Shown piece after piece: positions 3,780 to 17,051 of a DNA stretch of 62,833 nucleotides. The position numbers and the translations under genes were made by a program. This DNA comes from Bacteroidota bacterium. Lineage in GTDB: Bacteria; Bacteroidota; Rhodothermia; Rhodothermales; UBA10348. The notes beneath the pieces were generated by a model. It searched no databases and was not told the DNA's origin. It saw nothing but the letters and a program-made list of their open reading frames with translations. Location: assembly GCA_022571255.1 (NCBI GenBank), contig JACZYD010000003.1, forward strand, positions 1 through 62,833, in the 5' to 3' direction. The stretch's first letter is position 1, and the number at the start of each line of letters is the position of its first letter.

Positions 3780-4418
3780 TCAGCGCCCGAATTTGATCTC
3801 AATATCTCGAATTTTGGCAATGCGTAACTCGTGCCGTCCACCTTCATAGGCCGTTTCCAGAAATGTTGTCACAATCCTTTTGCAGACTTCAACGCCCAGT
3901 GAACGACTCCCAAGGGTGAGAATATTGGCATTATTGTGCGCACGAGCGCTCCAGGCTGTGAATTCATTGTAGGCGCACGCGGCGTGGATCCCAGGCACTT
4001 TATTGCATACTATCGAGGAGGCAATGCCCGTGCCGTCGATCATGATGCCGGTACCGGCCCGACCATCCGAAACCATTCTCGCCACAGCGTACGCAAAGTC
4101 GGGGTAATCGCAGGCTTTTGCCGAATCTGTTCCTACATCCACAACCGTCCAGTCTTTGCCCGATAGAAACGTAACAATGACTTTTTTAACATCGAATCCG
4201 CCGTGGTCGCTTCCAATACAAACGATGCGCGACGATGAGGGCAGCGGTGCGGTGTGTCCCAGTTCTACTGGACCGGTCTCTAAAGAAATCCCATGTTGCC
4301 TGGCGGCGTCACGGGCGAGCGGCGTAATAATGGAGCCTTCAGGGAACGATAGAGTTTTCCGGCCCGCCCGGACGGCGTCCATGATACGCGTTTCATTTAT
4401 GAGCACCCGACCAGACAT
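3780..4418 (-). CDS. rpiB: RpiB/LacA/LacB-family sugar-phosphate isomerase with ~65-aa N-terminal extension
   Basis: C-terminal ~145 aa carry IGSDHGGF, CDYPDFA, GIMIDGTGIASSIVCNKVPGIHAA and ARAHNNANILTLGSR. The N-terminal 65 aa (ITPLARDAARQHGISL) is an extra domain. Confidence 0.8.
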   Translation of the reverse strand: MSGRVLINETRIMDAVRAGRKTLSFPEGSIITPLARDAARQHGISLETGPVELGHTAPLPSSSRIVCIGSDHGGFDVKKVIVTFLSGKDWTVVDVGTDSAKACDYPDFAYAVARMVSDGRAGTGIMIDGTGIASSIVCNKVPGIHAACAYNEFTAWSARAHNNANILTLGSRSLGVEVCKRIVTTFLETAYEGGRHELRIAKIRDIEIKFGR

Positions 4419-4540
4419 TTTTTGAAGCTACAACCGGTATTCAGGCGATGCAAGAAGATTTGAACCGATATAATCCGATACGGGCAACGAGGCCGGCAAG
4501 TCAGGGCCTGCTGTCTGCGGCAGGACGCCATAGACATGCC

Positions 4541-8167: not shown

Positions 8168-10084
8168 ATGGGCGACCACGACATTCACTACAAGAGTGAT
8201 CCTGCAGCATTGCGGCGGTTCACCAAGCAGATCATCAATGATGTGCGTGCAATCGAATACATGTTACGTCACGACATGTTTGAAAAAGACGTGCGCCGCA
8301 TCGGAGCCGAGCAGGAGCTGTTTCTGATCAACAACCTGTGGCATCCGGCGCCGGTTGCAGTTGAGGTGCTCGAAAACAATACAGATCCGAGGCTGGTAAG
8401 CGAGTTAACCCGATTTAACCTGGAGTACAATCTTGATCCTCTCATTTTTGAGGGAGACTGCCTGTCTGTGTTGCATCGACAAATCGACGAGGGCCTCGAT
8501 TATGTTCGAACACTCGCCCGGAAATCTGATGCCGACATAGCGCTCGTTGGTATTCTTCCGACGATTCACGCCTCTGATCTACGGATCGAGAACATGGCTC
8601 CTATGGAGCGTTATTATGCGCTGAACAACATGATCATGGAGCTGATGGGTGGGACAGCACAGTATCGGATGGGGGGAATCGATGAGCTTTTCTTTCAACA
8701 CGATAACATCATGGTTGAAGGTTGCAATACCAGCTTTCAGACTCATTTCCAGGTTTCTCCAGAAGAGTTCGCTCACTGTTATAACATAGCTCAATTGATC
8801 GCAGCACCCGTTCTTGCCGGGGCGAGTAATTCACCCACGCTTTTTGGTAAGCGCCTGTGGCGCGAGACACGGATTGCCCTTTTTCAGCAAGCCATTGACA
8901 CTCGCAGCAGTAATCTTTACCTGAGGGATATGAGTCCACGGGTTCATTTTGGCTCGGCCTGGGTCGATTCGTCTGTCATGGAGCTGTATAAGGAAGATAT
9001 TGTTCGTTTCCGTGTAATCATGACGAGCGATTTCGATGATCCGTTCGATATTTTAAAGAGCGGAGGGATTCCAAATCTGAAGGCGCTCCAGTTGCACAAC
9101 GGTACGGTATATCGTTGGAATCGGGCCTGTTACGGGATAACCGACGGGATACCTCACCTGCGAATCGAGAATCGCATTCTACCGGCCGGCCCGAGTGTAA
9201 TCGATGAGGTCGCGAATTCCGCATTCTGGTTCGGCCTTGAGGCTGGACTTGCTGTGCGGTACGAAGATATTCGGACTCTTCTTCATTTTGACGATGCGAA
9301 AAGCAATTTTACTGCCGCCGCGAGGCTCGGGCTTTCAGCAGAAGTCCACTGGATTGACGGGAAAATCTGGCCAGTGGCCAAGTTGATTCGCTCGGAATTG
9401 TTACCCATTGCTCGAGAAGGGCTTGAACGTAATCAAGTTGATGAGAAGGATATTGACCGGTATCTCGGTGTGATTGATGAACGCGTTGACTCCAGGATGA
9501 CGGGTTCACAGTGGCAGCTGGCTTCTCTGAGCTGTATGAAAGAGTCTGGAAGCACGAGGGCGCAGCGGCTCGATATGCTGGTTTCAAGAATGGTTTATTT
9601 TCAGAACAAGGGAATCCCCGGTCATGAATGGGACATCATTGACAAGGTGGACGAAGAGGTTTCCAGAATTCCTGGTATCAGTGTAGAACATTATATGTCG
9701 ACCGATCTTTTTACGGTTCACGAGGACGAACTGATAGAATTTGTTGCCGTACTGATGGATTGGCAAAAGATCCGGCACGTTCTTGTAGAAGACAAAGGGC
9801 ACAAACTGGTCGGAATCATTACACATCGTTCAGTTCTCAGATATCTGGCTGAAACCAAAGCATCAGGTTCGACGGAAGATGCCCCGGTCAGCAGTGTGAT
9901 GGTCCCGGATCCGATTTCGATTTCGCCGGAAACCAGGACATTGCGGGCGATAGAACTGATGCGTGATCATAAAATTGGTGCACTTCCAGTCGTGAGAGAC
10001 GGTCAGCTGGTCGGAATTGTAACGGAAACAGACTTCAACCAGATGGCGTCCGGAATTTTTGATGAAACACTCGGATCAGGCTGA
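8168..10084 (+). CDS. glutamate-cysteine ligase-like (GCS2/carboxylate-amine ligase superfamily) protein fused to a C-terminal CBS pair
   Basis: RRIGAEQELFLIN-type N-terminal motif and ~480-aa ligase-like body. The C-terminus has two CBS modules (VEHYMSTDLFTV..., VSSVMVPDPISI...IGALPVVRDGQLVGIVTETDF). Confidence 0.72.
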   Translation: MGDHDIHYKSDPAALRRFTKQIINDVRAIEYMLRHDMFEKDVRRIGAEQELFLINNLWHPAPVAVEVLENNTDPRLVSELTRFNLEYNLDPLIFEGDCLSVLHRQIDEGLDYVRTLARKSDADIALVGILPTIHASDLRIENMAPMERYYALNNMIMELMGGTAQYRMGGIDELFFQHDNIMVEGCNTSFQTHFQVSPEEFAHCYNIAQLIAAPVLAGASNSPTLFGKRLWRETRIALFQQAIDTRSSNLYLRDMSPRVHFGSAWVDSSVMELYKEDIVRFRVIMTSDFDDPFDILKSGGIPNLKALQLHNGTVYRWNRACYGITDGIPHLRIENRILPAGPSVIDEVANSAFWFGLEAGLAVRYEDIRTLLHFDDAKSNFTAAARLGLSAEVHWIDGKIWPVAKLIRSELLPIAREGLERNQVDEKDIDRYLGVIDERVDSRMTGSQWQLASLSCMKESGSTRAQRLDMLVSRMVYFQNKGIPGHEWDIIDKVDEEVSRIPGISVEHYMSTDLFTVHEDELIEFVAVLMDWQKIRHVLVEDKGHKLVGIITHRSVLRYLAETKASGSTEDAPVSSVMVPDPISISPETRTLRAIELMRDHKIGALPVVRDGQLVGIVTETDFNQMASGIFDETLGSG

Positions 10085-10097
10085 GACGAATGCTTCC

Positions 10098-10706
10098 TTA
10101 CCACTTTCTGTAGTCACGAGCATTAAGATGCAGGCCCTCGCGAGGCAGATTTCGAGAGCCCTGAAAGACGAGAGTGATACCCGCAAGAAAAATTGCTCCT
10201 TCGCCTACCGGTTCTCCCGATGTATTGACATTGATTTCGGCTCCCAGAGCGAGAGTGAAATCAATAGCGACCCCGGACAGAGAGGAACCGGTCCTGTACC
10301 CGACTACGCCAGTCGGTTGGAAAACGGTCACAGACGTCTCACCGGTTTCGCCACCATCTATTCGCTCGTTTTCCCAATCGATGTCCAGAAACCATATATC
10401 GGCACGTGCGCCCACGAAAAACCCCCTTTTATCCCGCGCAAAATATCGATCCAGTTCGAGCGCCAGTCCCGGGCCTCCGCCTGTTTCATCGTCGTGTTCA
10501 CCGAAGTCACGGCGGTCCGTTGCATTGTATCCTGCCAACAATCGAACGCTCACGTGTTCTGAGGTTGGAATAATAACCTGTCCGACTCCAATCACACCCG
10601 CAGGATAGGCCTGGAAGCCCAGTCCGAACCTGGTCTGGGCAACAAGTTCATTTGGTCGAGAAAGAGCCCCGGAAAACAAAAAGAGAAAAATCAGGATTGG
10701 TCGCAT
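10098..10706 (-). CDS. small outer-membrane beta-barrel protein
   Basis: ATG at 10706 gives signal peptide MRPILIFLFLFSGALS, then alternating hydrophobic beta-strand pattern for ~200 aa. The ORF-track extension to 11135 is only a read-through of the hexamer repeat. Confidence 0.65.
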   Translation of the reverse strand: MRPILIFLFLFSGALSRPNELVAQTRFGLGFQAYPAGVIGVGQVIIPTSEHVSVRLLAGYNATDRRDFGEHDDETGGGPGLALELDRYFARDKRGFFVGARADIWFLDIDWENERIDGGETGETSVTVFQPTGVVGYRTGSSLSGVAIDFTLALGAEINVNTSGEPVGEGAIFLAGITLVFQGSRNLPREGLHLNARDYRKW

Positions 10707-10796
10707 CCTGTTATACTTTGTCGAGAGAAGAAAGTGAGAAAATAAGAGTTCCCGGTCAATGAATGGTGTCCTGTCTGCGCCCGACGGAGTATCATT

Positions 10797-11006
10797 GCTG
10801 ATGCGGAGGCTGATGCTGATGCGGAGGCGGAGACTGACGTTGACGTTAATGCCGATGCTGATGCGGAGGCTGATGCGGAGGCGGAGACTGACGTTGACGT
10901 TGATGCTGATGCTGATGCGGAGGCTGATGCGGATGCGGAGGCGGAGGTTGAGGCTGAGGCGGAGACTGACGTTGACGTTGACGTTGATGCCGATGCTGAG
11001 GCTGAT
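10797..11006. repeat. 35 tandem hexamers (GNNGAN: gctgat/gcggag/actgac/gttgac) with 54-96 nt higher-order units
   Basis: Read directly. Lies between the divergent OMP gene (start 10706) and the M28 peptidase gene (start 11038). All frames checked are open across it (two plus-strand frames and the minus-strand OMP-ORF frame). One plus-strand frame reads (A/V/T)(D/E) dipeptides but has no start codon. Confidence 0.9.
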
Positions 11007-11037
11007 CCCTGAATCCATGCAACCCGGAGTCTGAGTC

Positions 11038-12441
11038 ATGATGAAATCGATTACAATACGCCTTTCTGGAATCCTCGTCCTGCTGTTTTCTGCGAACAGT
11101 CCGGTGTATTCAAAACAGGCCGCCGAAGAAACCATTCCTGATAAGGCAGATCTTGTTGAAGAGTATCGTACAGACGCAGAACGATTGATCGACGCTGCGC
11201 TCGCCGACAGCTCGGCGTTTGAACGGCTGGCTTACATGGGGGATACTTTCGGCCCGCGGTTTTCGGGGACTCAGAATCTGGAAGATGCAATTGACTGGAT
11301 GCTCGAGGAGATGCGGTCAGACGGCTTGCAGAACGTGCGTGCCGAGGAGGTGATGGTGCCGCGTTGGGTGAGGGGTAGAGAGACCTTGACTCTGATGGAA
11401 CCCCGTATTGGAGCAATGTCCATTCTGGGCCTTGGGGGTTCGGTAGGTACGTCGCCTCTCGGTATCACGGCTGAGGTTTTGGTCGTCCGTAATTTCGATG
11501 AGTTGGAGAAGCGCGCCGATGAAGCAGTCGGCAAGATTGTACTTTTTAACAACGATGTCTGGCGAGGATACGACACAACGTATCGAAGGAACGGAGCGAT
11601 TCGTGGTGCACAGGTCGGTGCTGTAGCCATTCTGATTCGCTCTGTGGGCCCCGCATCGATGTACACGCCGCATACGGGAACGTCGAATTACGACGAGAAT
11701 GTCGCGAAAATTCCCAAGGCGGCAGTCACCACCGAGGACGCCGATATGATGCAACGAATGCAGAATCGCGGCCAGAAGATTATTGTTCGTCTCAACATGG
11801 ACGCTGTGACGTTGCCGGACGTGCCGTCAAGGAATGTTCTGGCCGAAATCGTGGGCCGGGAGTTTCCGGATGAAGTCATCGTGTTGGGTGGCCACATCGA
11901 TTCGTGGGATGTGGGTCAGGGCGTGATGGACGACGGCGGGGGAGTCATTGCAGCATGGCAGGCAGTTCTGTTAATGAAAAAACTGGGCCTTCGTCCCCGG
12001 CGAACCGTTCGCGTTGTTGCATGGACAAACGAAGAAAATGGCTCGCGTGGTGCAACGGGTTATCGGGACGCACACGCGGAAGAGATTGACAATCATATTC
12101 TTGGTATTGAATCAGATGGTGGAGTTTTTAAACCGTCCGGGTTCGGGTTTACCGGCGGCGATGAAGCTTTCGATCTGATCGTAGAAATTGCACGGCTGCT
12201 TGAAGGAATTGAAGCCTCGACCATCAGACGGGGTGGTGGAGGGGCAGATATCGCGCCGTTGATGCGTGAGGGGATGCCGGGTATGGGGTTGAGTGTGGAT
12301 GGTACTGAGTATTTCTGGTACCACCATACCAATGCTGATACGCTGGACAAACTTGACCCTCATGAAATGAATCTCTGTACGGCTGCCATGGCTGTGATGG
12401 CATACGTTGTGGCGGATATGGAGCAGCGTCTGCCGAGGTAG
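11038..12441 (+). CDS. M28-family zinc aminopeptidase/carboxypeptidase with PA domain
   Basis: Signal peptide plus M28 metal ligand motifs: GGHIDSWDVGQGVMDDGGGV, WTNEENGSRG, YHHTNADTLDK. Confidence 0.88.
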   Translation: MMKSITIRLSGILVLLFSANSPVYSKQAAEETIPDKADLVEEYRTDAERLIDAALADSSAFERLAYMGDTFGPRFSGTQNLEDAIDWMLEEMRSDGLQNVRAEEVMVPRWVRGRETLTLMEPRIGAMSILGLGGSVGTSPLGITAEVLVVRNFDELEKRADEAVGKIVLFNNDVWRGYDTTYRRNGAIRGAQVGAVAILIRSVGPASMYTPHTGTSNYDENVAKIPKAAVTTEDADMMQRMQNRGQKIIVRLNMDAVTLPDVPSRNVLAEIVGREFPDEVIVLGGHIDSWDVGQGVMDDGGGVIAAWQAVLLMKKLGLRPRRTVRVVAWTNEENGSRGATGYRDAHAEEIDNHILGIESDGGVFKPSGFGFTGGDEAFDLIVEIARLLEGIEASTIRRGGGGADIAPLMREGMPGMGLSVDGTEYFWYHHTNADTLDKLDPHEMNLCTAAMAVMAYVVADMEQRLPR

Positions 12442-12822
12442 AGAGCGAAAGGACTACTGCCAAAAATGGGTACACTCTGAACGGACCTGCGCCCCATTCT
12501 CCGTAGCAGGGACAGGGCTAAGGGTTTAGTCTGATCTCAGCACCGGGTAGAATGCGGCTGGGTGCTCTTTTCGCATTCTGTGAGGCCACGGCAGTCGCAT
12601 ATTTGCCGACGCTTGCATTCAAAATGGACGCCCCGTGGCATTGTTATGCCGAGGTACGGAGGAGTGAGAATCCCTTACGTCGTTATCCGGGGAGGATCAC
12701 GTCTTCCAAACCCAGCATGTTCTATATTTTCCAGAGACAAATATGAACTGAACAAAAGCATTCACTGCTGCCAATTCTGTGTACACAAAGGCGAAGCGAC
12801 ACCACAAACTGACCCAAAATCG

Positions 12823-12999
12823 CGCGAAGGCATGCCGGGAATGGGGTTGAGTGTGGATGGTACTGAGTATTTCTGGTATCATCACAACAATGCCGATACG
12901 CTGGACAAACTTGACCCTCATGAAATGAATCTCTGTACGGCTGCCATGGCTGTGATGGCATACGTTGTGGCGGATATGGAGCAGCGTCTGCCACGATAA
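12823..12999 (+). pseudogene. orphan copy of the last 58 codons plus stop of the M28 peptidase gene
   Basis: REGMPGMGLSVDGTEYFWYHHNNADTLDKLDPHEMNLCTAAMAVMAYVVADMEQRLPR* versus 12265-12441. There are 13 nt differences in 177, and only one changes an amino acid (T->N). Upstream in-frame sequence is unrelated to the peptidase. Confidence 0.85.
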
Positions 13000-13225
13000 C
13001 TCGCGGTCGTTCTAAGGATCAATCGGAGAGGATTCGAAAACGATGAATTCTGGAGAAAAGTTTCAGATCTGTCCAGTTAAGTCGATCTCTGGCAATAGAT
13101 ATAATGGCTCCTGAAATTCAGGAAGGAAAATCCATGTGATCCATGGTTATTGTCAGGCCATTTGGCATGTTTATTGCGATTTACGGCCTTGTAAGCCCGA
13201 AACATTAATCAAGCAAATTCGCCCG

Positions 13226-13648
13226 ATGGAAACGGCCCTGAAAAAATGCGGTCATTGTGCGCGTGAAAAACTGCTATCAGAGTTCGGCTGGCAGAATCAC
13301 GCCACTGACATTCTGCGCAAGTCGTGTAAGGAATGTGATTCAAGAGCGGAAAAATTGTTTGGAATAGAAGATGAATACGAAGCCCGGCGATCAGCACGAC
13401 TCTTCCTGAAGTACGGTATTTCTCCGCGAGAGGAGGCTCAGCTGCTCGCAGATCAAAACGGTGCATGCGCCGCTTGCGGAGAGATTCCGGAAGGAAAACG
13501 GCTTCTGGTCGATTATTGTAAAGAATACAACGTGGTTCGCGGCCTCTTGTGTCCCGCTTGCAGCAAAATGGTCAGCAGGTTAGGCTCGGACCTGTCCATG
13601 ATGCGTAAGACGATGGCCTATCTGCAGGCCAGTGTGAGCGGGTTTTAA
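13226..13648 (+). CDS. endonuclease VII-family (His-Me finger) zinc-binding protein, catalytic residues substituted
   Basis: N-terminal CGHC...CKEC zinc ribbon plus YGISPREEAQLLADQNGACAACG...RLLVDYCKEYNVVRGLLCPACSKMVSRLG, which matches the Endo VII pattern Q.G.CAIC...VDHDH.TG.VRGLLC..CN..LG. The alternative GTG start is at 13136. Confidence 0.7.
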   Translation: METALKKCGHCAREKLLSEFGWQNHATDILRKSCKECDSRAEKLFGIEDEYEARRSARLFLKYGISPREEAQLLADQNGACAACGEIPEGKRLLVDYCKEYNVVRGLLCPACSKMVSRLGSDLSMMRKTMAYLQASVSGF

Positions 13649-13710
13649 ACTCGGCGCGCAAAAACGTAGACTCGGCGCGCAAAAATCAAGCTTCGGCGCG
13701 CAAAAACGTG
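13648..13710. repeat. tandem repeat, 21 nt x 3 (ctcggcgcgcaaaaa core) spanning the cfa stop codon
   Basis: On the minus strand it reads FLRAEA* / FLRAEST / FLRAEFK. The first unit is the end of cfa. Confidence 0.85.
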
Positions 13711-14975
13711 TTGGCATGAGTTTCGGCATCGGCAACCGTCTTTCGTTGATCATCTGCGTGCGAAACCGACGGAAGATCAGCCTTAAGGTATGATCGCGTC
13801 ACGGGTACGGCGTCCTCCTTTTTAGCCAGCTGGATCTGGAATATAACATGTCCGATATTTCGGAATGCGAATTCGCTGATTACGAGGTAATATTCAAACA
13901 TTCTGAAAAAAGACTCATCGTAGTCGCGAACAATCCATTCTTTTTGCCGGTCAAAACGGCGACGCCACTCTGCGATCGTTTCCGCATAATGAGTTCGCAG
14001 TACTTCGATGTCACATATGTAGAAACCTGTCTGTTCGACAGCCTTGACAATTTCCGAGAGAGAAGGCGCATAACTGTTCGGGAAAATATACTTTTTCGTC
14101 CATGCGTCCGTGATGCCCGGTCCGTCGGCGCGTCCGATTGTGTGGACGACGGCTATGCCGTCTTCTTCCAGCGTATCGTAAATCTTCTGAAAGAATGGTT
14201 TGTACTGAGGAAGTCCGACGTGCTCCATCATACCCACGACAGTAATTCGATCGAATTTATCCGGAATATCCCGATAATCCTGTAATCGGAAGTCGACACC
14301 GTCTGTCGCGCCTTCTCTCTCTGCTCGTGAAGTGGCTGCGACAAGCTGTTCCTGGGACAGGGTTACACCCGTGACATGCGCGCCAGTCAACTGGTGCATC
14401 AATACAGCAGGTCCGCCCCAGCCGCAACCAATATCCAGAATGCGATGTTCGGGTTTTGCCAGCAGCTTTTGAGTAATCAGCCTGGTTTTATCACGCTGTG
14501 CGCGTTCCAGATCTTTCTCTGTATTGTCCTCCGTGTAATAGGCACACGTATACTGAAGATCTTCATCCAGAAACGACTCGTAGACATTGGCCTTGATATC
14601 GTAATGGTGGGCTACGAGTTTTTTAGAACGCGCTCTGGAATTGAGCTGACCATAATAATTTTTCAGGCGCTTCAGCTTCGCATTGTTTGCATTGAGGCGA
14701 TTATCGGGTTTCCAGCCGATGTTTCCCGTTACAAGATTAATGAAGTCGTACAATGTCCCCTCTTCAAGAGTCAGCGTACCGTCCATATAGGCTTCACCAA
14801 GGGCCAGTTCCGGGAGAAGAAACAGACGCCACGGTAACCATCGCGTATGAAGTCGAATGGTGGCCCGAAGCTCCGAATCTTTATCGCCGTATGCGTACGA
14901 CGTACCGTTTGCAAAAATACACGTCAGCCGACCTGTTTTGATCAGTTTTTTAAGAAAGAAATTGAGCAACAACAT
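13686..14975 (-). CDS. cfa: cyclopropane-fatty-acyl-phospholipid synthase
   Basis: SAM motif ILDIGCGWGGPA, FDRITVVGMMEHVG and YAPSLSEI. Length is typical of the CFA synthase/mycolic acid methyltransferase family. Confidence 0.9.
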   Translation of the reverse strand: MLLLNFFLKKLIKTGRLTCIFANGTSYAYGDKDSELRATIRLHTRWLPWRLFLLPELALGEAYMDGTLTLEEGTLYDFINLVTGNIGWKPDNRLNANNAKLKRLKNYYGQLNSRARSKKLVAHHYDIKANVYESFLDEDLQYTCAYYTEDNTEKDLERAQRDKTRLITQKLLAKPEHRILDIGCGWGGPAVLMHQLTGAHVTGVTLSQEQLVAATSRAEREGATDGVDFRLQDYRDIPDKFDRITVVGMMEHVGLPQYKPFFQKIYDTLEEDGIAVVHTIGRADGPGITDAWTKKYIFPNSYAPSLSEIVKAVEQTGFYICDIEVLRTHYAETIAEWRRRFDRQKEWIVRDYDESFFRMFEYYLVISEFAFRNIGHVIFQIQLAKKEDAVPVTRSYLKADLPSVSHADDQRKTVADAETHANTFLRAEA

Positions 14976-15008
14976 AACATCCAGGGTGAGAAACGGAACT
15001 GAATATAA

Positions 15009-17051
15009 TCACTGCAAAAGTCTGCGTACTTCTTTGAGGGCCTCGCGGGCCCGCTGGTTTTGTGGAGAGATGATCAACAGCTGCTGCAGCCGGTCCCGGG
15101 CTTCCGAGTATCTGCCAAGCTGGGCATAGACCAACCCCAGATTTCCAAGGGCAGCTTCGTTTACAGGCTCAATGAATACGGCGCGCTCGAAGAGCAGAAT
15201 CGCTCCCTCCAGGTCTTGTTTCAATATTTTTATTGCTCCCAGGTTTATCAGGGCGTTGGTAAAATCCGGGTTAAGATCGAGAACTGACGCGAACGAGGTT
15301 TCTGCTTCGTCGAGAAGCTCCATTTTCAAAGCCGTCGTTCCATGACCGTAGTGCGCCGATTCGAGCCAGGGTTGCTCGATTATTGCCTGACTGAATTCGG
15401 TCAGCGCATCATGGAGTTGACCTTCGGCCTCCAATAAATCAGCCAGACGCACGCGAATCTCAGCGTTTTCCGGTTGAATGTCCAGTGCTTCGCGATACAG
15501 TTGTTCGGACAAGGCAGGTGAACGATCGGCAACCTCATAGGCCCAAGCCAGCTCTTGCATGCGCTCAGGAATGTCACCATCCAGTTCGTTGGCTCTTTCG
15601 AGCGCCGCAATTGCGGCATCCAGTTGACCGTCCCGCAGAAGTGCTCTACCGTAAAGGAACTGGGCGTCACCGTGATCGGGATCTGCAGATAACGCAGTAT
15701 CCAGAATGCTCATTCCACGATTCACGAATACGGAGCCGGTTTTTTGTTCTCCGAGGATAAGGTGAGCCATGCCCAGGCGGATCGTATTCGGGTCCTGGTG
15801 ACCGCTCAGCAGTGGAGTAAGCAGCTGACTTGACACATGATCGGATGCTGTTGTAAGATCATCGGCTGACACGACTCGTATCCAGTGATCTGTAAAGCTC
15901 GCATGAGGCGCGTTTGTCGCGTCTACGCGGGGCATGTGGCAGCTGAAACAGTTCACCTCTCCGGTGTGATTGGAGATTGCCGGTTCCGTCGAAAACCGGA
16001 CAGTGATATCTGAATGACAGGTCAGACACGTATTGTTAAAATACTCCGGACCCTGGGCTCTGAATCCGTTGTGCGGGTCATGACACGTCACACAGGTCAT
16101 CGGATTATCGAGCTCGAGCGTCTGCTCGAAGCAGGCAGATAATATCATTCGGTCAGCGTGCGACACCACTGAAATCACATTTTGAGAGGACCGTGTATGC
16201 TCTTCGAACACCGCAACATGAGATGTCATCGGTTCGCCCGGTCGATACTGAAAAGCGTTGCGGCCTTCCTGATAGACGGTGACTGCGCCGGTCACGTGGC
16301 ACTGCCGGCAGACATCGAGTTGCCGTGCAGGTGACAGATATTTCGGGTTGACGATCGACGTGTCGATCGAGTCCGGCGGCGTCAGTTCTTCGAGCCGTTC
16401 ATCGACATGGAGAGCTCCGGGTCCATGACATCGTTCACATCCGATACCCTCTGGTATATCCATGTATTTACCCGTTACATGAGGTACACGTACAGGATAG
16501 GAGTTATGGCACGCGATGCACCGATCCGAGAGAAGTCGATCGAAACGCACATTTTTCCTTTCGTAACCCGGACTCATCGCCCACTTGGAACCCTGGCTGA
16601 ACCATGTCAATGGCAGTTCATACAGCCTGTTATTGCTCTTCGCGATATAGGTGCGCGCCGCATTTCCACTTCCCAGAACGTAATCGATTTTTCGAACCAG
16701 CGAATGTGTCTTTTTTCCGACGTCGTCAACGCGGTATTCTTCCTGGAAATATCCACCGTTCTTTTTAAAGGCTCTGTAGTAGAAGTTTGATGCCTCATGG
16801 TAGACGGGTTTCGCAGAGAAATCCTCGACTTCCCGGTCCGCGCTCATCGGGTAAAATGAGTGAGACATCCCATGAGACTGAAATCCTCGCCACTCGTTTT
16901 CGTGACAATCAAAACACGCAGCATCTCCAACGTACTCTATCTCCGTGGAAATATTCCGGAATGGAATCGTGTCTTTCTGCTTGTCAGAGTATTGGGGCTC
17001 ACATCCGACCAGGATGGCTGCAAGCAGACAGAATCGCGAGACAGTTCGCAT
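15009..17051 (-). CDS. multihaem (7 x CxxCH) cytochrome c lipoprotein fused to C-terminal TPR domain
   Basis: ATG at 17051 gives MRTVSRFCLLAAILVGC (lipobox). Haem motifs: CFDCH, CIACH, CERCH, CRQCH, CVTCH, CLTCH, CFSCH. The last ~250 aa are TPR repeats. Confidence 0.85.
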   Translation of the reverse strand: MRTVSRFCLLAAILVGCEPQYSDKQKDTIPFRNISTEIEYVGDAACFDCHENEWRGFQSHGMSHSFYPMSADREVEDFSAKPVYHEASNFYYRAFKKNGGYFQEEYRVDDVGKKTHSLVRKIDYVLGSGNAARTYIAKSNNRLYELPLTWFSQGSKWAMSPGYERKNVRFDRLLSDRCIACHNSYPVRVPHVTGKYMDIPEGIGCERCHGPGALHVDERLEELTPPDSIDTSIVNPKYLSPARQLDVCRQCHVTGAVTVYQEGRNAFQYRPGEPMTSHVAVFEEHTRSSQNVISVVSHADRMILSACFEQTLELDNPMTCVTCHDPHNGFRAQGPEYFNNTCLTCHSDITVRFSTEPAISNHTGEVNCFSCHMPRVDATNAPHASFTDHWIRVVSADDLTTASDHVSSQLLTPLLSGHQDPNTIRLGMAHLILGEQKTGSVFVNRGMSILDTALSADPDHGDAQFLYGRALLRDGQLDAAIAALERANELDGDIPERMQELAWAYEVADRSPALSEQLYREALDIQPENAEIRVRLADLLEAEGQLHDALTEFSQAIIEQPWLESAHYGHGTTALKMELLDEAETSFASVLDLNPDFTNALINLGAIKILKQDLEGAILLFERAVFIEPVNEAALGNLGLVYAQLGRYSEARDRLQQLLIISPQNQRAREALKEVRRLLQ

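Follow-up and report, generated by a model that had tools for sequence, protein, structure and literature searches.

The duplicated 3' end of an M28 peptidase gene

In the DNA analysed here, 62,833 nucleotides (nt) of contig JACZYD010000003.1 from a Bacteroidota bacterium (hereafter the window), an intact M28 peptidase gene (11038..12441, plus strand; 467 amino acids; PF04389 at E 3.5e-27; orthologues at 56-79% identity) is followed by a second copy of its own 3' end. Copy A (12265..12441, plus strand) comprises the last 59 codons of the gene, and its left part continues the host gene. Copy B (12823..12999, plus strand) lies beyond a spacer of 381 nt (12442-12822) that has no second copy anywhere in the window, and its right end and the DNA past it are native sequence. 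We argue below that copy A (177 nt) and the spacer (381 nt), 558 nt together, are very probably the integrase-less remnant of a site-specific element with the end of the M28 gene as its target, with copy A as an attL-type hybrid attachment site (att) and copy B as the attR-type site that holds the displaced native gene end. An independent repeat search returned 12264-12434 and 12822-12992 as a two-copy direct repeat with the copies 558 nt apart, and alignment widened it to 12265-12441 versus 12823-12999, with unrelated DNA to the left of both copies and after both stops.

The copies are identical at 164 of 177 nt. The 13 differences (12267, 12270, 12273, 12282, 12321, 12324, 12327, 12329, 12336, 12435, 12436, 12438 and 12441) fall into three clusters, in the first 18 nt, at 12321-12336 and in the last 7 nt, and affect 11 sense codons and the stop codon, which is TAG in copy A and TAA in copy B. 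In a codon-by-codon comparison, ten of these sense codons carry synonymous changes and the eleventh a T->N replacement (ACC/AAC). With about 21-26% of random single-base changes in these codons expected to be synonymous, the probability of at least ten synonymous codons in 11 under neutral change is 1.4e-6 to 1.2e-5. A preliminary description of the locus, made from the sequence alone, had given the same counts in every detail, and the strength of the bias (P 1e-6 to 1e-5) bears out its view that these are two alleles shaped by protein-level selection and not a duplicate decaying in place. Two tracts are identical in A and B by alignment, one of 38 nt (12283..12320, equal to 12841-12878), which includes the best-conserved stretch of the gene end, GAGTATTTCTGGTA, and one of 87 nt (12348..12434, equal to 12906-12992). 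A scan for tRNA and tmRNA genes found none, which excludes an att site of the tRNA type, and an exact-protein look-up with the M28 protein of the window gave no record.

The native gene end and empty sites in relatives

To place the two ends we drew on 17 related loci from species genomes and 80 more from a metagenome scan. The closest relative outside the species, locus L019, shares 97% identity over the last 58 M28 residues and 82% just upstream, and its order (M28 gene, stop, spacer, Endonuclease_7-like gene, CFA synthase gene) is that of the window neighbourhood without the duplication. In the DNA alignment, L019 5-388 matches window 12058-12441 and L019 211-1405 matches window 12822-14036. 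Since L019 aligns with copy B and the flank downstream of it, the 558 nt are extra in the window and the end of copy B is the native one. The same excess is seen against L001/L020 (79%), which are likewise empty and have an Endonuclease_7-like gene beside the M28 gene. In all, L019, L001/L020, L021 and L023 present an empty attB site, having neither the insert nor the 21-nt motif described below.

The end of copy A belongs to a different type. It reads CCG AGG TAG, and CCGAGGTAG is then followed by the motif, as in loci that bear an integrase; this combined ending, with the motif 12-13 nt past the M28 stop, is common to copy A, L002, L011, L017, L022, L024, L025, L029 and L099, and the ending and the motif are also found in L018 and L105. 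The target gene therefore stays full length and finishes in an element-type end. The preliminary description had proposed to identify the native 3' end from orthologous loci and to look for an empty site. The comparison was favourable on both counts, with the empty L019 and L001 aligning with copy B and its flank, copy A grouping with the integrase-bearing loci, and empty and occupied sites both occurring among close relatives. Polarising the 13 mismatches with L019 was uninformative, as this locus sides with A at 5 sites and with B at 4, and matches neither copy at 3 codons.

Anatomy of the insert

At its two ends the insert shows homology to the termini of tyrosine-integrase elements found at the M28 site (L018, L017, L100 and L105). 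The left end (12442..12483, plus strand) was delimited by local alignment to the left ends of L018 and L017 and by multiple alignment; it contains a degenerate copy of the motif, CTACTGCCAAAAATGGGTACA (12454-12474, plus strand), and its homology to other elements stops at 12482/12483. The right end (12700..12822, plus strand) is about 75% identical to L100 843-970 and more weakly similar to L105. Within it lie a box, GCATTCACT (12758-12766, plus strand), and the perfect form of the motif (12765-12785, plus strand), followed by a 37-nt spacer up to copy B. These matches uphold the earlier proposal that an element entered the 3' end of the gene, brought a surrogate end with it and was reduced to a deleted remnant resembling a cis-mobilizable element (CIME). 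The 381 nt between the att repeats hold no integrase or transfer genes, and no tyrosine recombinase was detected in the 62.8-kb window by tblastn or by a hidden Markov model (HMM) built from 58 integrases of the family. Both searches came back empty, in line with the absence of an integrase already stated in the preliminary description.

Between the two ends lies an interior of 216 nt (12484..12699) with two overlapping hairpins. Hairpin 1 (12539-12544/12561-12566), followed by CTTTTCG, is overlapped by hairpin 2 (12549-12556/12572-12579). Structural variants in metagenomes leave the window sequence at 12480-12483, precisely where the left-end homology stops, as expected if longer elements share these habitats and the copy in the window is an internal deletion; the loose ends of these variants match nothing in any fetched locus. 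A 65-nt piece of the interior (12482-12546) also occurs on a 313-nt contig of run X1, with other flanks on both sides, 6 mismatches and higher depth.

Searches for encoded functions in the insert were negative within their scope. Rfam returned nothing relevant, either at the gathering threshold over the whole window or at E up to 10 over 12380-13200. On both strands the 381-nt insert folds no more stably than its shuffles (z -0.55 and -0.92). A scan for promoter and terminator consensus found nothing in the insert, with a loop limit that excludes both hairpins. An open frame of 87 codons runs in frame into copy B, forming an open reading frame (ORF) of 145 amino acids (12562-12999); the chance of such a stretch being stop-free is about 1.5%. 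A diverged metagenome variant of the insert differs at 18 positions, and the 17 that are listed show, by our own count, no preference for third codon positions of the frame; we therefore propose no fusion protein, and the frame is probably not a gene.

Integrase-bearing elements at the same site

The preliminary description had suggested a search for the 381-nt segment next to an integrase, and relatives with an integrase at this site do exist. In L002/L099, L018, L029 and L105 a damaged or incomplete tyrosine-integrase gene lies directly after the M28 stop, as an ORF that starts MASL[YV]KRG..YYAQWHNARR 30-60 nt past the motif. An exhaustive HMMER search with the integrase N-terminus found 175 relatives. 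The full-length ones that we examined have 343-383 amino acids, and 7 of 7 carry PF00589, most of them with SAM-like core-binding domains. A word-index protein search with the 64-residue N-terminus gave one match only, and the N-terminus had no confirmed match among metagenome and viral contigs. In a search of the literature that was not exhaustive, we found no description of the M28 target or of this integrase subfamily.

The elements at this site are found in many stages of decay. Nothing remains past the motif in L025; L022 retains 12 integrase codons, L029 about 60 codons with a frameshift, and L018 95 codons that run up to an IS630-type insertion, and L024 has an IS3-like fragment. The protein shared by L099 and L002 (P0003) has a SAM-like domain and ends at 204 amino acids, and the integrase of L105 is in pieces, a 133-residue N-terminal part and a 162-residue part with PF00589. 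The insertion in L018 (L018:548-2077, Rhodothermus sp. AH-315-K08) is an IS630-family sequence with a DDE_3 transposase and inverted repeats TAGTGCAGCGCCCCATAAG, and it breaks the integrase at the M28 site.

The one complete element is that of L105 (JGI Ga0535667_0003465, 9722-16355), with about 6.4 kb between two M28-end copies of about 197 nt. Its attL (9722-9919, with the M28 gene ending at 9919) and attR (16158-16355) differ by 6 mismatches. Besides the integrase pieces, its cargo comprises a blh-type beta-carotene dioxygenase gene (PF15461), a rhodopsin gene (PF01036) and small ORFs. No conjugation genes were noted in this cargo, which was read only from precomputed Pfam hits, and the parent element may be a plain integrative island rather than an integrative and conjugative element (ICE). 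A rhodopsin gene beside a blh-type gene, that is, a light-harvesting cassette on a site-specific integrative element, is seen in L106 as well as in L105.

The arms of the elements share the 21-nt motif CTGSTGCCAAnnCTGTGTACA, whose perfect form is CTGCTGCCAATTCTGTGTACA. In L105 one motif (9943) stands just past the left copy and another (16121) lies 37 nt ahead of the right copy, and the window has the same geometry, with the degenerate motif at 12454 and the perfect one at 12765, 37 nt before copy B. A box of 9-10 nt precedes the right motif and recurs, as its reverse complement, past the left one; the pair covaries by subfamily, reading GCATTCACT / AGTGAATGC in the window, L002 and L100, and GGCACGCACT / AGTGCGTGCC in L105. 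From this covariation we argue that the arms are functional protein-binding DNA; the 21-nt motif is probably an arm-type binding site of the integrase.

Some loci hold more than one element end. On a single scaffold, L100 shows in succession a right end, an M28 copy, the motif and an integrase, an arrangement that an excised circle (attP-like junction) or two elements in tandem would produce. In L002 and L017, from one metagenome-assembled genome, an intact M28 gene with an integrase-bearing element is followed by a second, decayed M28 end with an in-frame stop, and the decayed end is followed by the motif and the start of a dead integrase. L002 and L017 together are a case of accretion in tandem.

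Distribution of occupied and empty sites

Sequence nearly identical to the locus occurs in at least 20 marine and marine-sediment sequencing runs, and in several of these contigs span 12405-12870. Within the species, each of four long scaffolds (L107-L110, 59-71 kb), which come from two assembly series, carries the insert at 99.3-99.8% identity. Among relatives the site is patchy: the nearest (L019, L021, L001/L020, L023) are empty and more distant ones are occupied. In run X3, a lineage like L001 shows both a junction of right end and copy (attR-type) and a junction of copy and motif (attL-type), the right-end spacer being the loose end ahead of the L001-like copy. As L001 itself is empty, the site has been gained or precisely lost more than once.

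A probable deleted remnant of a site-specific element

The locus is best explained by the following course of events, whose order we infer. The attP site of the element would have consisted of a right arm, about 177-197 nt of M28 3' end (roughly the last 59 codons) and a left arm, with the 21-nt motif on both sides. A tyrosine integrase would have recombined this attP with the gene's own 3' end (attB), giving an attL (copy A) with host DNA left of the crossover and element DNA right of it, and an attR (copy B) with the reverse. The M28 gene would thus end in element-derived sequence, and its native end would have been pushed downstream. The crossover may be placed in 12283-12320 or 12348-12434, the tracts that are identical. 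An internal deletion would later have taken the integrase and all cargo, with its left breakpoint at 12483/12484, and left behind a 42-nt left end, a 216-nt middle and a 123-nt right end together with both att sites. The 3' cluster of mismatches fits this reading because copy A is of the element type there and copy B of the native type. The synonymous bias is accounted for because an element-borne end works as the M28 end in previous hosts, under protein-level selection.

Several observations weigh against this account. The element-borne copy is 93% identical to the host's own end and about 72-76% identical to the copies carried by elements elsewhere, a disparity that calls for either gene conversion between the two att copies or transfer confined to close relatives. 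Such conversion is hinted at by L110 and L112, in which copy B carries an A-type middle cluster, a pattern that reflects either gene conversion between the repeats or the assembler's choice. The 216-nt interior matches nothing in the fetched loci or in the window, and no empty allele is known within the species. Among relatives, no M28 site has a certainly intact integrase: the gene has a frameshift or is truncated in L105 and L029, stops at 204 amino acids in L099-L104, is split by the IS630-type insertion in L018 and runs off the contig in L002, so that we infer the activity of the element family from the overall pattern.

Alternative explanations

An Endonuclease_7-like gene (13226..13648, plus strand; 140 amino acids from a conserved methionine start; PF02945 at E 2e-13) lies 226 nt past copy B, and the Endonuclease_7 fold includes mobile nucleases. 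The preliminary description had offered homing-endonuclease-stimulated recombination with a diverged donor allele as an alternative. In the form considered here, the gene at 13226-13648 would encode a free-standing enzyme that made a cut in the M28 region, and repair of the cut from such an allele would have duplicated the 3' end. This we consider very unlikely, since the gene occupies the same place at the duplication-free L019 and L001/L020 and so is not linked to the insertion. Its orthologues beside these empty sites (L019 at 76%, about 616-1044; L001 at 49%, about 4080-4503) have the same conserved methionine start. Read by eye, 3 of 3 orthologues have D-Y-C-[KRQ]-E in the stretch usually occupied by D-H-x-H, which we take to be the canonical catalytic stretch of the family. 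Homing would also leave the element-type ends, the two-sided motif and the integrase-bearing relatives unexplained. We conclude that the gene is a resident neighbour and not the cause of the duplication. Its exact protein is present on 9 contigs, a sequence search against solved structures gave no match, and the gene is transcribed (84-124x in RNA runs). The protein has been kept beside M28 and perhaps represents a domesticated or inactive form of the fold.

A duplication that arose locally, by replication slippage or unequal crossing-over, and then diverged in place, with unrelated DNA coming to lie between the copies, could account for direct copies only 558 nt apart and for the exchange of the middle cluster between copies on some scaffolds. 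We give it even less weight. Ten of 11 changes are synonymous in a copy that would be free of selection, the spacer is homologous at either end to the termini of integrase-bearing elements (L100, L105 and L018), and the end of copy A matches those elements and not the native end. The homology of the spacer ends in effect refutes this reading. A diversity-generating retroelement (DGR), with the variable repeat at the end of the gene and the template repeat downstream, has a similar geometry, in that a near-identical copy of a gene's 3' end lies a few hundred bases away. The mismatch pattern led us to reject this reading, which is the least credible of those considered here: of the 13 mismatches, only six show an A in copy B, the rest being C/T changes, and a diversifying system would yield the reverse of synonymous changes. 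By Pfam, the genes nearest to the repeat (Endonuclease_7-like, CFA synthase) are not reverse transcriptases, a statement limited to these neighbours, as no wider scan of the window was made.

RNA from the insert

Three RNA-Seq runs from one study (X18, X25 and X26) have a contig depth over 12283-12840 that is 4-8x that of the M28 body and of the DNA past copy B, contig depth being a poor measure of expression. The signal is RNA rather than contaminating DNA, because the convergent CFA synthase gene has zero coverage. No excess over the same interval is seen in DNA runs or in RNA run X30, from a different study. Some RNA contigs close on themselves, with a cycle of 588 nt (558+30) in X25 and a joint 12840->12283 in X18, where the left part of B meets the middle of A as in the predicted attP junction. 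We rejected these circular contigs as proof of an excised circle: the assembler's word of 31 is shorter than the 38-nt shared tract and the paths cannot be phased, the low-depth DNA run X17 yields the same 588-nt cycle, and L110 and L112 carry the B-left/A-middle junction in chromosomal context. Fold-back contigs, the same in X18 as in X26, put the ends of molecules near 12579 and 12585, the former directly past the two overlapping hairpins and the CTTTTCG run. In the simplest reading, the M28 message would stop within the insert, the right half of which would be covered by a second abundant RNA.

That the remnant is not inert, and either excises as a 558-nt circle or is kept as a terminator or a source of an abundant small RNA, would add to the deleted-element account rather than replace it. 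It is favoured by the RNA excess without a DNA excess, by the closing of RNA contigs with the predicted attP junction, by the molecule ends at the fold-back positions, and by the retention of both arm motifs and of the insert in every scaffold of the species. We nevertheless hold it to be unlikely. The circular contigs may be artefacts of the assembly graph for the reasons just given, run X30 has no excess, Rfam gives no match, the folding energy is ordinary, and no integrase is known in the genome of the window. In its specific form, the 558-nt unit would still be a working mini-element, cut inside the 38-nt tract and with a heavily transcribed circle junction, or else a host-kept terminator with an abundant stable RNA; we think this quite unlikely. 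If true, either version would explain the RNA excess, the self-closing contigs, the retained arm motifs and the presence of the insert in every scaffold.

Neighbouring repeats

Two further repeats flank the region. Between the convergent Endonuclease_7-like and CFA synthase genes lies a 21-nt tandem repeat, TAAACTCGGCGCGCAAAAACG, in 3 copies (13646-13708). The spacing here varies between populations, with one more unit on a contig of run X1 and a gene spacing larger by 42 nt in L109 and by 105 nt in L107, which corresponds to 2 and 5 additional units if the difference is wholly within the repeat. On the other side, a minus-strand ORF (10098-11135, called as 10098-11018) that is divergent from the M28 gene contains 12/18-nt tandem repeats (10796-11029). 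They encode a repetitive N-terminal tract of ISLRL/NVNV units, and the plus strand reads as an acidic DAEA/DVDV repeat. Among scaffolds of the same species the called protein has 260, 278 or 308 amino acids.

Relation to known systems and implications

Derivatives of ICESt1 and ICESt3 at the 3' end of fda in Streptococcus thermophilus are an example of CIMEs. Like CIMEs, the remnant in the window lies between attL and attR, no longer has an integrase or transfer genes, and descends from a site-specific element whose target is a protein gene's 3' end, with tandem accretion seen in L002+L017 and L100. It differs from them in that only 381 nt lie between the repeats, in att repeats of 177-197 nt instead of tens of base pairs, and in its host, a Rhodothermales-like bacterium. 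CIMEs are defined, and integration into the 3' ends of protein genes with the gene end carried in a flanking repeat is described together with tandem accretion, in PMC5704250, so that the kind of event is well known; the element family appears not to have been noted before. Tyrosine-integrase islands, integrative and mobilizable elements and prophages are likewise known to integrate into the 3' ends of tRNA or housekeeping genes with a replacement end in attP (PMC5704250). The M28 elements resemble them in leaving the gene intact through the gene end in the flanking repeat, in an integrase that adjoins attL, in short motifs on both arms and in empty and occupied sites among relatives, and differ in that every copy at the M28 site so far has a damaged or incomplete integrase. 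With the free-standing homing endonuclease genes of phages (T4 seg/mob), the locus shares a nuclease-fold gene beside an apparent exchange of alleles. Here, however, the nuclease-like gene is also present at empty sites and its catalytic motif looks altered, and homing leaves no duplicated gene end with element arms.

For annotation, neither copy B nor the open frame at 12562-12999 should be called as a gene. The current understanding of integrative elements is unchanged by these results, and the locus offers a clean worked example in which a repeated gene end, with copies that differ at synonymous positions, rightly pointed to an integrase-type element. What it uncovers is a family of M28-targeting elements in uncultured Rhodothermales-like marine-sediment bacteria, with unusually long att repeats (177-197 nt), a motif on both arms and many stages of decay. 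The rhodopsin and blh cassette on one member of this family bears on the movement of light-harvesting genes between bacteria.

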